Shown one piece after another: positions 39,001 through 63,000 of a DNA stretch of 64,000 nt (positions are counted from its first letter, which is position 1; each line of letters starts with the position of its first letter). Made by a program: the position numbers. Origin of the DNA: an uncultured bacterium (lineage in GTDB: Bacteria; Zixibacteria; MSB-5A5; UBA10806); contig CBEUCH010000007.1 in assembly GCA_965541585.1 (NCBI GenBank), positions 113,055 to 177,054 on the forward strand, written 5' to 3'.

Positions 39001-42000
39001 CAAAGACGAAAAACATGTATTCAGCCAGACTCGAAGATTTATTCAGGCTGAAGGTTTTCTACCGGCGCCGGAGTCTGCTTATAGCGTCGCTTGCGCCATC
39101 GATGAAGCATTGAAATGCAAAGAATCGGGCGACAAAAAGGTCATAGCTTTTAACGTTAGCGGTCATGGCTTCATGGATATCCCCGGTTACCGCGAGGTTC
39201 TGGGTTTGTGATTGATAGCAGAGCTTTGTAAGGTTATGCAAACCTGTCAGTTTATGGGAAGGCGGAGTGAAAAAGATCACCTGCAGAGCTGAATCAAGAT
39301 CGATCTCTATGCGGTACATTTGCATGGCGGGGGTCTTCCTCGGTATACAGGTTTCGCGATTTTTCTCCGGTACGCTTTCAAAACCGTTAAATCTTGACAA
39401 GGAAAATGTCGGTTTGTATCATTGCCGAGAGTGACGGGATTGAAGTCATTTCCGGACTATTTCATTCGGAATGGAGTCAAGCCCCGGAGGTTGGGATCGC
39501 GAAAATAATTGGAAAAGTGATTAGAATCCGGGATTTCAGGCTAATTTGGTAAGTGCATTGTACATAATGGATTGTTGAGGTAGCGTGATGAAACTGGCTG
39601 AGAGAATGTCACGATTGGGCACGGAAACGGCATTCGTGGTGCTTGCTAAAGCGAAGCAACTTGAAGCGCAGGGGAAGGAAATTATTCACCTTGAGATAGG
39701 TGAACCGGATTTTGACACTCCGCGCAATATCATAGACGCCGCCATCGGTGCTTTACGGGACGGATGGACTCATTATGGGCCGTCTGCGGGTCTGCCGGAA
39801 TTGCGGGAGGCCGTAGCCGATGAGGTTACGCGAACAAGGGGCGTGAAGGTCGATCCCGCGGAGGTGGTTATAACGCCCGGCGGGAAGCCGGTTATGTTTT
39901 TTGCCATGCTGGCCCTGATAAACGATGGCGACGAGGTCATCTACCCAAATCCCGGTTTTCCCATCTATGAATCGGTAATAAATTTTATCGGTGCTAAACC
40001 GGTGCCGATTCGGTTAAGGGAAGAGAATCGGTTCCGTCTCGATGTCGACGAACTGGCTTCCTTGGTGACCCCGAAAACCAAAATGATAGTGGTTAATTCG
40101 CCTCAGAATCCGACCGGTTCGGTTCTAACGGAAGAGGATTTGAGAGCTATAGCTGATGTATCCATCGAGAACGACATAATCGTCCTCTCCGACGAGATAT
40201 ATTCTCGGACGATTTATGACGGCGAGCATCGATCCATGTATGGTTTTAATGGTATGCCTGAAAGAATGATAATCCTCGATGGCTATTCCAAGACCTATGC
40301 TATGACCGGTTGGCGACTTGGTTACGGGGTGATGCCGGCGGCCCTTGCCGAGCAGGTGGCCAAGCTGCAGACCAATTGTAACTCATGTACCGCCAGCTTC
40401 TCGCAGATAGCCGGAATATCGGCGTTGACCGGCCCTCAGACTGAAGTGGAGGCCATGAACAATGAGTTTAGAAAAAGGCGAGACATAGTGGTTGAGGGAT
40501 TAAATCAAATCAAGAACGTTGACTGCCAGGTCCCCGACGGCGCCTTTTATGTTTTTCCAAACGTCTCACGAGCGGGCCTGAAATCGGAGGAATTGGCCGA
40601 TAGGATCCTCCGGGAAGCCGGAGTGGCTGTTCTGTCCGGAACCTCCTTTGGATCTTTCGGAGAGGGGTTTATAAGAATCTCCTACGCCAATTCAATCGAC
40701 AATATCAATAACGCCCTGGGCCGGTTAATGGACTTTTTTGGCAAGATATAGCCATTCCGCAGCCCGGAACAAAATGTCTTTCCCGTCTGTTGCCCCGTTA
40801 AGGAAAAGCGGTTATTGCCGAACTTCGCGGATAGGGCAGGGTTTTTAGGTTAGGTTTTATGGCAGGATTTGAGGGCCGAAAATATCGTAAAAAAACAGTT
40901 GACTTGACCAGGGGTCTCTCCTATAGTTTTTCCGCCTTGCGGTGACTTGGCAGCGTCTAGGCATTTATAGGGCATTTGATTGAATTGCTTGTACCAAGGA
41001 GGGAGTCATTACTTTTAGAATCATTTTAAACAAATGGAGGTATGAAGAGGAAAAAAGAGCTATTATTTTTTCAACGTTAGTTACATTAAATCCAAATAAC
41101 ATCTTTAAAGGAGGGATGAAACTTGTATCGAAAGCCTGTATTTAGACTGGCTGCGGTGATCCTGGCGTTGCTGGTTGTTTCGTCGGCATGGGCTGGCACA
41201 ACCGGAAAGATCGCCGGAAAGGTTCTCGACAGAGATTCGGGCGAACCTCTTCCAGGGGTTAGCATACTGATCAAGGGAACCACCACCGGGGCAGCCACAA
41301 ACATTCAGGGTGAGTTTTTTATCATCAATGTTCAGCCGGGCGAATACGACCTGCGAGCAACGCTGGTTGGTTACGGCCCGGTGGAGGTCGAGAAGGTCAG
41401 GGTTACCATCGATTTAACGACAACAGTTGATATTGATCTGAGCACGCAAACTATCGATATGGGAACCATAACCGTCGAGGCCCAACGTCCATTGATTGAG
41501 AAAGATCTCACCTCATCACGCATTCTGATTGCCTCAACGCAGATAACCAATTCGGCCGTTGACGGCCTTGAAGACGCCGTCAGCTTAGCTGCCGGTTCTG
41601 TGCTGGGGGCTTTCCGTGGCGGGAGAGGGAATCAGGGTGAAGTGATCTACATGCTCGACGGTGTCAACGTTGGCAACCCCATCGGATCCACTCACAGGGG
41701 CACCAATCCCGGACAGGGTAATAACGCCCTGGCCACTGTAATACCCAACGAGGCCGTAGCTGAAGCCGAGGTTTTAACGGGCGGTTTTGGGGCGGAATAC
41801 CCCAGTGTCCAGTCCGCAGTCATCAATGTCGTTACCAAAACGGGTGGCGAAAAATACACCGGGAAAATAAAATCCAAGTCGTCTCCGGAGGTTATTTTCG
41901 GCCGGGAAAACATGGAAGATGATACCTATAATCTCGACTGGGCTGCGCCCGGAAGTACCGTCGTCCTGAGGAGAGCGAAGATTGATGATAAGAACCGCTC

Positions 42001-60000: not shown

Positions 60001-63000
60001 ATACGAGATAAGCGAGACCTTATCTCCGCCGGGGATTGATATTGATATATTCGGGGCAACGGGGGATGTGGATTGGATCAGGTATAACGCGCACGAAGAA
60101 TTCTTAAGACTCGTAAAATGGTCGCAGCCGACTGATGGGGTATTCAGAATATCGGCTGAATTTGACGAAGCTGGAATAGCGGGCTATCAACCGTATTACG
60201 ATGGCAACAGGTTTGTTATTAAAATAAAAAAGAAACTCCAATCGATTCCGCTTTTTTCAAGCCCTGTTAAGGGATCAAAAATCGTAATTGATCCCGGCCA
60301 TTCACATGACAGTGGTGCCGTGGGCCCGGCGGGATTGCGGGAGGAAGATGCTAACCTCTGGATTGCCCATGAATTGAGAGTGATGCTGGAACGAAAGGGT
60401 GCCGAGGTTTTGATGACTCGTTACGGCCATGAGGATATCGCTCTCTATGATCGCCCGAAGATGGCTGAGAAATGGGAGGCGGATCTATTGATATCAATTC
60501 ATAATAACGCTCTGCCGGATGGCATAAATCCTTTCAATAATAACGGGGCGTCGGTTTTTTATTATCATCCGCATTCCAAGCCGCTGGCGGAGACTATTCA
60601 TAAATATCTGTTAAAGGAAACCGATCTACCGGATCATGGTCTCTACTATGGCAATCTGGTTTTGACCCGGCCTACCTCGATGCCGGCGGTATTGGTTGAA
60701 TGTGCCTTTATGATGATCCCCGAACAGGAGGCGATGCTGAAAACCGATAAGTTTCAGAGAAAATGCGCCAGGGCTATCTTGAAGGGGATTGAAGAATATC
60801 TGCGCAGGTGATGATCACTGTTTTATGGCTCCCGCCGTTATCCCCTCTGTAATCCGTCTCTGAAATATCAAAAAGAATATTATGACCGGTAAGGCTGCGA
60901 TTGTCGAACCCGCCATTGTAACAGGCCAGTCGCTGGATCGGGGGTCCTGCATCAGTGCCAGGCCCACGGGAAGCGTATACATCTCATTGGAAATGGTCAA
61001 TATCTTGGGAAAGAGGAAAGAATTCCAGGTGGTTAGGAATATCTGAACGGCCAGCACCGCCAGGGCCGGCTTGCATAGCGGCAAGACGACTTTAAAGAAA
61101 ATCATTAGCTCCCCTGCGCCATCTACCCTGGCGGCGTCCTCCAGGTCGGTCGGCAAGCCGTCTATATACTGCTTCATGAGAAATACGCCTAATGGCGATA
61201 CCAACCAGGGCATTATCAGCGCCAGGTAGGTGTCGAACCATCCGAATTTCAGCATCATCTGGAAAATTGGCAGAATCAGAACGTGCACCGGAATCATCAA
61301 CATTGCAACCGCCGTCATGAATATAGGCCATGTGATCCTTCCGGCGCCCCTGGAAAGGCCGTAGCCGACCATGGCGCAGAGAAGTAAATTCCCAAACGTG
61401 ACGGATATAGCCACGATGCTGGAATTCAAAAAATACCTGCCGAAGTTGTTAGTCTTGAAGACGGTTGCATAGTTTTTAAAAGTGAAACCGATTTCCTTCA
61501 AGCTAACGGAAAATGTCCCGGGATCTTGAATCGATAATAGCATCATATACAGCATGGGAAAGATCATTACGAGCAGTATTGCTATTAGAAGACCTGTAAT
61601 TAACCATCTGGGAGCCCGGCGCATCACGTGGTTCTCCTGATGTTGGTTAGCCTGAACTGGATCAGCGAAAATACAAGTATGATAAGGAATAACAGATATG
61701 CAGCGGCCGAGGCATAGCCGATATCACCGCGGCTAATTCCCTTATCGAATATAAAGAAGACCGCGGTTAGCGTGGAGTTGAAGGGTCTGCCGGAAGTCAT
61801 AACGAATATCTCGACGAATATCTGGAATGACCTGATTGTATTTAAAACAATTACAAAGGCGAATGTCGATTTCAAAAGGGGAATCGTGATCTCTAAACTT
61901 CTTCTAAAAAAACCTGCACCATCGACCCGCGCCGCTTCGTAGAGTTCGACCGGGATCGATTTTATACCGGCTAAGAAAATAAGCACGTAATATCCGATTG
62001 CGACCCAGACATCCATCGCCATGATGGAGAGAAGAGCTGTTTTTTCAGATTGTAAAAATCCGTTCGCCGGTGGAGAGATGCCGGCCAGCTTGCAGAGCGA
62101 AAAAATATATCCTCCGCGCGAATATAGATTGTAAAATATTAGAGCTACGACCACCATGGCGGTGATGGAGGGTATGAAATATGCCGCCTGAAATATCCGG
62201 TGGCCGGGTATTTTTTCAGCTATTAAGAGTGCCAGTAATAACGCAACGAACGTGGTTATGGGTATGGTTCCGAATACGAAAAAGAAGGTGTTTTTCAAGG
62301 CCTTCACGAAAACAGGATCGGTGATTAACCGGGTATAATTCGAAAAACCTATGAACTGGCCGGTTCCTCTCAGAAGCTGGAAATCGGTGAGGGAGAGGTA
62401 GAATGAGTAACCTATGGGGTAAAGCCAGAAGACCAAAAGATATATTATCCAGGGAAGGATAAACAATAGTATTTTATTCCTGGATCGCATGATCCGCCGA
62501 TTTAAGTTTTGCATCTATTGTTCTTGATGCCTTCTGCAGAATTTCCTCCGCTGTCCCGTGGCCATACATGGCCGCCTCTATAGCGTCCTCGATGTCCTGT
62601 TCAATATCCACCCATAACGGAGTTGGGGGAGCGGATTTCGAATTCTGCAGCTGCTGTGCCTGTATCATTTTTTCGGGATCGGAGATCTCCAGATCGGGAT
62701 ATGGAGGAAATCCAAAGCCGGCAGCGTCACATAAACGCTGGCAGTTTTTCCTGGCCGTTATAAATTCGGCCAGTTTCCTGGCGTTTTCAATATTCCTCGA
62801 CCGCGAATGGACGGCAATATACTCGCCTCCGAAGAAGGAACTCCCCGTTCCCCCATCCTCTTTGAAAAAGGAGAGGAGCTGATATTGGAAATCGGGGGGA
62901 TTTAGTCTCAAACGTCTTAAAAGCCATCCGCCGGATATGACAAATCCGATCCTGCCCTCCCGGAAATACTCCTCGAGCCTTCTCTGGCTTTCGATGACTC

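Follow-up and report, generated by a model that had tools for sequence, protein, structure and literature searches.

Zixibacteria lack the diaminopimelate pathway and probably use a substitute wall residue or scavenged diaminopimelate

How do bacteria that seem unable to make diaminopimelate (DAP) fill the third position of the peptidoglycan stem, the residue that decides cross-linking chemistry and wall recognition, and does a cluster of wall-degrading enzymes supply it? The question is raised by a 64,000-nucleotide stretch of DNA (the window) from an uncultured member of the Zixibacteria (genome G000, 98% complete), in which a survey had described a 14-gene operon as a salvage source of DAP and lysine.

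The gap in the pathway, which the survey had reported for this genome and for the phylum, was confirmed at both levels. E. coli ThrA, ThrB, ThrC, Asd, DapA, DapB and AmpG found no match in G000 when used as queries, and the only amino-acid-kinase-family matches there appear to be UMP kinase and carbamate kinase. Among 131 Zixibacteria genomes, each at least 90% complete and G000 included, DapB_C was found in none (control 11/14; DapB is present in 60 of 61 genomes of a comparison phylum), aspartokinase passed the cut-off in one, where it lies beside Asd and methionine synthase, and the DHDPS family did so in four, all in contexts that look catabolic. The Asd/ArgC family, which would include LysY, was found in 0/4 genomes (G000 and three single-contig relatives; control 14/14), and a LysZ-like kinase is likewise missing from G000, which removes the LysW-type lysine route. 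DAP dehydrogenase was found in 0/5 genomes. The DapL pathway was rejected as well, with DapA and DapB absent upstream and the dapF-adjacent aminotransferase scoring 88-96 bits against cut-offs above 500. Given this gap and a DapF that has often lost its cysteines, Zixibacteria probably use a substitute residue such as lanthionine, or scavenged DAP. A literature search covering few subscription papers returned no title on Zixibacteria wall chemistry and nothing relevant on lysine auxotrophy or homoaconitase in the phylum, which does not in itself prove novelty.

The locus comprises 14 ORFs on one strand (41123-60811), overlapping or spaced by 4-73 nt. The features in and around it are as follows.

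39585..40751 (+), class I aminotransferase (PF00155), ancestrally adjacent to the wall-turnover genes on their 5' side
40899..40927 (+), sigma70-like promoter by consensus match only (10/12 positions), ahead of the TonB receptor
41123..44158 (+), TonB-dependent receptor (PF00593, PF13715)
44178..46040 (+), secreted cargo protein of a widespread unnamed family, no Pfam or NCBIfam match
46045..47079 (+), PorV/PorQ-family outer-membrane barrel (NF033709, 208 bits, cut-off 90)
47109..48824 (+), putative lipoprotein 1, N-terminus reads as lipobox-like, no family, kept in f1, f2 and f17
48853..50337 (+), putative lipoprotein 2, lipobox-like N-terminus, no Pfam or NCBIfam family, kept in f1, f2 and f17
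50359..50403 (+), intrinsic-terminator-like hairpin with T-run (stem of 14 pairs, 9 G-C), between TonB module and wall genes
50411..51883 (+), PBP4-type DD-carboxy/endopeptidase (S13; TIGR00666, 233 bits, cut-off 108), signal-peptide-like N-terminus
51883..53163 (+), LysA, meso-DAP decarboxylase (TIGR01048, 460 bits, cut-off 298)
53163..54290 (+), alanine racemase, Alr (TIGR00492, 290 bits, cut-off 168)
54274..55056 (+), YkfC-type gamma-D-Glu-diamino-acid amidase copy 1 (SH3-NlpC/P60; PF00877, PF18348), likely start 54274, signal peptide not evident, relatives of about 260 aa
55053..55949 (+), YkfC-type amidase copy 2 (SH3-NlpC/P60), 60% identity to copy 1, signal-peptide-like N-terminus, top PDB matches 3H41, 3NPF and 3PVQ
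55946..57082 (+), C39-like peptidase (PF13529), predicted to be exported, in clusters of f1, f2 and f17
57073..58014 (+), LD-carboxypeptidase, S66, YkfA/LdcA type (PF02016, PF17676)
58014..59012 (+), dipeptide (L-Ala-D/L-Glu) epimerase, YkfB type, enolase superfamily, 32% identity to E. coli YcjG
59012..60811 (+), MurNAc-L-Ala amidase (Amidase_3, PF01520), likely start 59012 from sequence, close relatives of 590-609 aa
60815..63670 (-), ABC importer of the sugar type in convergent orientation, with a binding protein and two permeases (PF01547, PF00528)

Family matches bear out the gene identities given earlier for the TonB receptor, PorV, S13, LysA, Alr, the two NlpC/P60 proteins, the C39-like and S66 peptidases, the epimerase and Amidase_3. 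Atlas clusters of the cargo protein are chiefly from Ignavibacteriota, Bacteroidota and Fidelibacterota, its structure model (pLDDT 37) is unusable, and a second receptor-cargo-PorV trio lies on contig C11 of the same genome. The aminotransferase at 39585..40751 reaches 279-287 bits with LL-DAP aminotransferase models whose cut-offs are 507-593, and hence is not DapL by score; dacB lies directly 3' of such a gene in G037 and G026. An Rfam search of 39000-64000 gave no match.

The description of a 14-gene operon holds for the 14 same-strand ORFs, but the hairpin splits the operon; the same junction carries a hairpin in 8/8 loci folded, with a short T-run in G028. Sigma70-like matches are not above chance, since 8 sites were found against 12.5 expected in shuffles. 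The core of dacB-alr-ykfC-ldcA-ykfB-amidase is an old zixibacterial wall-turnover locus, to which lysA is joined only in families f1, f2 and f17, as judged by synteny. In the single-contig genome G037 the locus keeps dacB-alr-ldcA-ykfB-amidase without ykfC or lysA, neither of which was found genome-wide. The TonB module stands 5' of the wall genes in five families, and, contrary to the survey's finding that the 5' genes are not conserved with the cluster in the order, the two parts occur together in four of the six same-order genomes examined and in G089. At the other end, the ABC importer, a candidate amino-sugar or muropeptide importer, adjoins the amidase gene in families f1, f2, f5, f6, f8, f18 and f10.

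That the nine 3' genes take the stem peptide apart is well supported by homology. The amidase would free the stem peptide, PBP4 and the LD-carboxypeptidase would trim D-Ala, YkfC would release the diamino acid, YkfB would convert Ala-D-Glu to Ala-L-Glu and Alr would interconvert alanine. The S66, SH3-NlpC/P60 amidase and epimerase genes lie together as in YkfABC, and in the accessible text of PMC4600125 the ykfABC-type recycling systems of Bacillus and Bacteroides (BT1313/BT1314) use the same LD-carboxypeptidase, gamma-D-Glu-DAP amidase and Ala-Glu epimerase sequentially on released stem peptides. Zixibacteria differ in adding PBP4, Alr, Amidase_3 and, in one clade, LysA, and in lacking the DAP pathway. 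In contrast to YkfABC, no Dpp/Opp peptide permease is linked, the adjoining transporter being of the sugar type; a weak MppA-like match (E 4e-11) lies elsewhere. The E. coli-type salvage of tripeptide into the wall also differs, in that AmpG and Mpl are missing: across G000 and the 85% of the G037 sequence that was read, AmpG has no match and the best match to Mpl is MurC itself.

LysA passed its cut-off in 11 of the 131 Zixibacteria. Scanning the genome collection for LysA gave matches from other phyla. As LysA needs meso-DAP, which the cell cannot make, DAP-to-lysine salvage is a sound interpretation for this clade, where LysA would turn DAP from foreign wall peptides into lysine, the Cys/Cys DapF could bring LL-DAP into the meso pool, and DAP may be food and not an essential building block. 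The YkfC-type amidase is found in 103/131 genomes and was not found in the other 28; of these, G062 has no match to YkfB either, and G020 only a 28% match. The salvage proposed by the survey stands as a plausible lysine source in this clade but is not supported as the phylum-wide source of wall DAP, and the 14-gene cluster cannot explain the DAP gap for the whole phylum.

We then turn to the two wall enzymes kept in spite of the gap, both of which the survey had named correctly. MurE is present in 131/131 genomes (in G000 at C10:55151-56656, motif SDNPR) with the DNPR motif in 30/30 read. E. coli MurE carries DNPR (PMC3681970), D,L-lanthionine can enter the E. coli wall (PMC12039745), and the motif does not discriminate between DAP and meso-lanthionine. 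For the recycling enzymes AnmK, NagZ and MurQ, also listed earlier as present, a reciprocal best hit backs the first, and short motifs only back NagZ and MurQ. DapF is found in 129/131 genomes (C1:315369-316211 in G000), but it had been treated as ordinary, which most sampled copies are not: in 47 of the 61 read, serine replaces at least one catalytic cysteine (28 Ser/Ser, 16 Cys/Ser and 3 Ser/Cys). All 11 sequences of f1 and f2, which include G000 and its order, are Cys/Cys, whereas in the rest of the phylum 47/50 have at least one serine there; the second cysteine is present in 12/12 LysA carriers, and DapFs of other phyla are Cys/Cys in 27/27. These swaps are new here, our literature search, with its few subscription papers, having returned nothing on DAP epimerase C73S/C217S.

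In other respects the protein resembles canonical DapF (TIGR00652; Anabaena 9MRO, Arabidopsis 3EJX). G000 DapF and two Ser/Ser copies score 191-253 bits (cut-off 115), and the DAP-binding residues (Anabaena N13, N66, N164, N197, E215 and R216) are kept in 61/61 at five positions and in 60/61 at the N164 column. A Ser/Ser model is closest to the lanthionine-tolerant DapFs 9MRO and 3EJX (TM 0.92; rmsd 1.8 for 9MRO). Glycine occupies the tolerance-linked position in 60/61. A role as histidine racemase was ruled out by the pocket residues and by the fold search, in which HisR and CntK fall far below true DapFs. Exchanging cysteine for serine greatly reduces turnover in enzymes of this class (PMC11602996, PMC8142540), and hence a Ser/Ser DapF is not a good candidate for the synthesis of a meso form. 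The one-cysteine racemase variants EcL-DER, MMP0739 and trans-3-hydroxyproline dehydratase likewise replace a catalytic cysteine by a natural hydroxyl residue, but they keep one cysteine and use threonine, and a double-serine DapF is not described in the available text of PMC8142540.

Our leading reading, held at somewhat less than an even chance, is a wall with meso-lanthionine from CysK/CBS-type enzymes, to which this clade added LysA for turning scavenged DAP into lysine. The survey had mentioned lanthionine as an alternative. On this view a PLP enzyme of the CysK/CBS family would use cysteine to form meso-lanthionine, or its relative allo-cystathionine, which the DNPR-type MurE would then attach as the third residue, and the DapF-like protein may be kept because it binds the thioether analogue. 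The CysK/CBS family occurs in 131/131 genomes at E<=1e-50, CBS-like members in 104/131 at E<=1e-112, and the top PDB match of the G037 CBS is M. tuberculosis Cbs, which makes lanthionine from cysteine in the accessible text of PMC9232105. MurE is universal while the DAP pathway is missing and salvage genes are patchy. F. nucleatum is described as without the DAP pathway and dependent on a cysteine-synthase-family lanthionine synthase (PMC9600241, PMC11602996); it too keeps a DapF homologue, and Zixibacteria likewise have cysteine-synthase-family enzymes as candidate lanthionine synthases. However, the F. nucleatum homologue racemises histidine and has an acidic pocket (PMC11602996), whereas zixibacterial DapF keeps the Asn/Glu/Arg DAP pocket, often without cysteines. 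Also against lanthionine, CysK/CBS enzymes are common (control 12/14), with one to five paralogues per genome and none linked to wall genes, dapF or murE; the DapF glycine recurs in 9 of 27 DapFs from other phyla; and, Ser/Ser DapF being a poor candidate, no other source of the D-centre was identified. A further point against it is that LysA in this clade implies entry of genuine DAP into the cytoplasm, within reach of MurE. If true across the phylum, lanthionine walls would extend well beyond Fusobacteria. The fuller account, in which a whole free-living phylum swapped DAP for a cysteine-derived thioether, DapF was repeatedly retuned to a serine-based enzyme or binder of that compound, its fold working with no catalytic cysteine, and in one clade DAP serves solely for making lysine, is possible but doubtful.

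The wall could instead contain DAP taken from other cells by natural auxotrophs, with MurE adding it and LysA, where present, turning the surplus into lysine. The MurE motif, the wide occurrence of YkfC, the retained DapF pocket, the predicted export of several cluster enzymes and the TonB module in five families are consistent with this, and G000, without the kinases of the Thr, Arg and Pro pathways, already scavenges amino acids. Nevertheless, YkfC is missing from 28 genomes and YkfB is absent or weak in places, Mpl and AmpG were not found in G000 or the part of G037 read, LysA irreversibly removes the compound an auxotroph must save, the hairpin sets a TonB module with a generic cargo family apart, and the DapF swaps are left unexplained; we consider it rather unlikely. 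If true, it would imply strong dependence on the remains of other cells and could help explain difficulty of growth. Less probable still is a DAP route that does without DapA/DapB. Here 2-amino-6-oxopimelate would arise in another way, such as the reductive carboxylation of an aminoadipate thioester, and would be the substrate of a LysN/KAT-II-type enzyme, encoded just 5' of dapF, working as LL-DAP aminotransferase. This aminotransferase gene lies directly upstream of dapF in 40/61 loci, occurs elsewhere in four of five genomes where it is not adjacent, and has 2-aminoadipate and multiple-substrate transaminases as its closest structures; G000 also has a fungal-type homoaconitase, a saccharopine enzyme pair and 2-oxoacid:ferredoxin oxidoreductases. 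Yet G037 builds a wall without the aminotransferase (best match 29%), as do G037 and G088 with homoaconitase under the cut-off, a working epimerase would be needed that most genomes seem to lack, and a Pfam scan of 249 enzymes common to G000 and G037 gave no obvious candidate. A route with this chemistry has, to our knowledge, no precedent. The LeuA-like synthase with LeuC/D/B is most simply explained by leucine synthesis.

Least likely of all, DapF may have left wall synthesis, its serine forms being non-catalytic ligand binders, or a dehydratase or one-way epimerase on another substrate, with the wall residue coming from elsewhere. The spread of Ser/Ser, Cys/Ser and Ser/Cys pairs points this way, as do the one-way epimerases or dehydratases that arise by natural Cys-to-Thr changes in related enzymes (in the accessible text of PMC8142540). 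DapF is not covering for MurI, since the Asp/Glu (glutamate) racemase family is present in 130/131 genomes. The distal DAP-site residues are however invariant in 120/120 DapF homologues, and the fold search ranks HisR and CntK well behind true DapFs. Whatever its role, the conserved Ser/Ser DapF, hidden by automatic annotation, calls into question the rule that cofactor-free epimerases work with two cysteines.

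The genome holding the window (G000) is 98% complete, and we found in it no aspartokinase, no match to the Asd/ArgC family, no DapA, DapB, ThrB or ThrC, and no diaminopimelate (DAP) dehydrogenase. It nevertheless carries dapF (contig C1, 315369-316211) and, within a normal mur cluster, a MurE of the DAP-type DNPR motif, so that each element of the pathway gap reported in the survey's finding was confirmed. Its claim that the gap extends across the phylum also holds. In an identical set of 131 Zixibacterial genomes used for every search (at least 90% complete, a subset of a larger group), DapB_C was found in 0/131, aspartokinase exceeded the cut-off in one, and the DHDPS family did so in four, where the gene contexts look catabolic. 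In contrast, MurE was present in all 131 (DNPR in all 30 sequences read), the glutamate-racemase family in 130 and DapF in 129. A comparison phylum, one record of which is labelled Latescibacteria, has DapB in 60/61 and DapF in 59/61 genomes, showing that the DapB search works and that the gap is not general. Several of the Zixibacterial assemblies are single contigs, hence an assembly artefact is an unlikely cause. Without DAP synthesis, these bacteria must import DAP, make it by another route, or replace it.

We read the two catalytic cysteine sites of DapF in a non-random sample of 61 of the 129 genomes (G000, the 30 best-scoring loci, 10 chosen by handle and 20 spread over families). The pairs were Ser/Ser in 28, Cys/Ser in 16, Cys/Cys in 14 and Ser/Cys in three, with no other residue at either site, whereas DapFs of other phyla were Cys/Cys in 27/27. 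The DAP-binding residues, as defined from the Anabaena structure (PMC12039745, accessible part), are kept in 60-61 of the 61, and also in 120/120 database homologues, 111 of them Ser/Ser, from a search seeded with Ser/Ser sequences. Among homologues in the DapF clade from same-class genomes, the named ones are mostly Zixibacteria and one is labelled Calditrichaeota. Trees built with both Cys/Ser columns left out gave at least five changes at the first site and three to four at the second, although these were quick trees with two long branches and an unpolarised direction of change. For one Ser/Ser copy a high-confidence structural model was obtained; its top matches are DapF structures in the closed form, and HisR and CntK rank far below them. 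Single Cys-to-Ser changes slow this enzyme class greatly (PMC11602996, in part) and natural Cys-to-Thr variants are one-way epimerases or dehydratases (PMC8142540, in part); most Zixibacterial DapFs are therefore unlikely to be ordinary epimerases, despite the conserved pocket. That DapF has a non-catalytic or unrelated role we consider very improbable. In several families (loci L019, L037, L100, L103, L110 and others), the genes after dapF are, as judged by eye, those for anthranilate synthase rather than argS.

LysA, the meso-DAP decarboxylase, exceeded the cut-off in 11/131 genomes, in one of which the gene is divided between two places, and a twelfth copy is interrupted by contig ends. The gene lies within the cluster in families f1, f2 and f17 only. 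The single-contig genome G084 has lysA in two far-apart pieces (L062 at C1:2193534, and C1:738129), absent from its cluster, and genomes G063 and G124 gave no match. Each of the 12 genomes with LysA retains the second DapF cysteine (10 Cys/Cys, two Ser/Cys) and LysA occurs in 0/44 genomes with serine there, an association that is not an independent test because the LysA-bearing genomes are related. In the literature searched, which included few subscription papers, we found no report of the LysA addition, the phylum-wide gap or the serine-type DapF.

Taking the sequence data together, we tentatively propose that lanthionine, made by a CysK/CBS-family enzyme, would replace DAP as the third residue of the wall; this is quite possible, if short of probable. 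LysA would make sense in such a wall, since foreign DAP would then be spare and could be turned into lysine for a lysine auxotroph. Fusobacterium nucleatum is the known free-standing case, in which lanthionine replaces DAP by way of a cysteine-synthase-family enzyme (PMC9600241 and PMC11602996, both in part). E. coli, which has a DNPR MurE, is able to incorporate meso-lanthionine (PMC12039745 and PMC3681970, available parts). The CysK/CBS family was found in 131/131 Zixibacteria, with CBS-like members in 104 at an arbitrary threshold. A CBS and gamma-lyase pair is common to G000 and a second genome, G037, and the structure closest to this CBS is an enzyme described, in the accessible part of its source, as making lanthionine from cysteine. 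The proposal has three weak points: CysK/CBS enzymes are common everywhere, none of the candidate synthases is linked to wall genes, and for genomes with a Ser/Ser DapF it does not account for the origin of the D-centre. A PLP enzyme resembling D-cysteine desulfhydrase/ACC deaminase by eye (G000, C4:114505-115503) may bear on D-cysteine supply.

Scavenging of DAP for the wall, which the survey's finding had put forward, fits a peptide-feeding lifestyle but sits poorly with the patchy salvage genes and with the presence of LysA, and on balance appears rather unlikely. A novel route to DAP seems less likely still. It could draw on the LysN/KAT-II-type aminotransferase directly upstream of dapF (40/61 loci by script and one further locus seen), or on the fungal-type homoaconitase and saccharopine pair of G000. 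However, G037 lacks the aminotransferase, G037 and G088 both lack the homoaconitase, and no candidate route emerged when 249 of 323 soluble proteins, selected from the 947 G000-G037 reciprocal best hits, were scanned against Pfam.

The G000 homoaconitase exceeds the TIGR00139 cut-off in a genome without the LysW route, adjoins a gene that is PrpD-like by eye (positions noted here: C12:13995-15965 and C12:17343-18776), and has counterparts in G034 and G020. At C6:76674-79328, some 6 kb away from the CBS/gamma-lyase pair, neighbouring genes look like those for a lysine-ketoglutarate reductase and a saccharopine dehydrogenase; they could serve either to break lysine down or in the last part of a fungal-type pathway.

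The window features discussed here are:
36120-39211, upstream of the cluster: an asparaginase II-family gene, an HD-domain gene and a TrpB2-like PLP enzyme.
41123-60811, all on one strand: a 5' TonB module, then wall genes from dacB to an amidase.

All 14 genes of the cluster are present as the survey described, and for the most part they make up an old locus for wall turnover. Its core (ykfC, ykfB and the amidase, often with ldcA, alr and dacB, and a convergent sugar-type ABC importer) recurs in many families; in G037 the order is aminotransferase-dacB-alr-ldcA-ykfB-amidase, facing the same ABC genes. The recycling genes are of an already known kind, and the best structure matches of the cluster NlpC/P60 protein are YkfC recycling amidases (PMC4600125, in part). 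YkfC was detected at E<1e-25 in 103/131 genomes, with weak matches only (about 1e-11) in five more and none in 23; in five YkfC-less genomes YkfB was clear in three, distant in one and not found in one. A search of G000, and of 1.80 of the 2.12 Mb of G037, turned up neither Mpl nor AmpG.

The 5' genes had been thought not to be conserved with the operon in the order, but the TonB module accompanies the cluster in four of six same-order genomes examined, and in G089; a more distant trio lies before ykfC in G045 and G125. The secreted cargo protein belongs to a broad unnamed family, and we found no link from it to peptidoglycan. A hairpin with a T-run lies 3' of the module in 8/8 loci folded. 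In G000 only a few bases part this hairpin from dacB, hence transcription probably runs on into the wall genes at a reduced level.

G000 and G037 also have in common a four-subunit benzoyl-CoA-reductase-like cluster with beta-oxidation genes (L316:14831-19653 and L317 in G037). A serine-palmitoyltransferase-like gene of G037 (L295:8680-9864), with a partner on C14 of G000, scores 580 bits against a cut-off of 640, a hint of sphingolipids.
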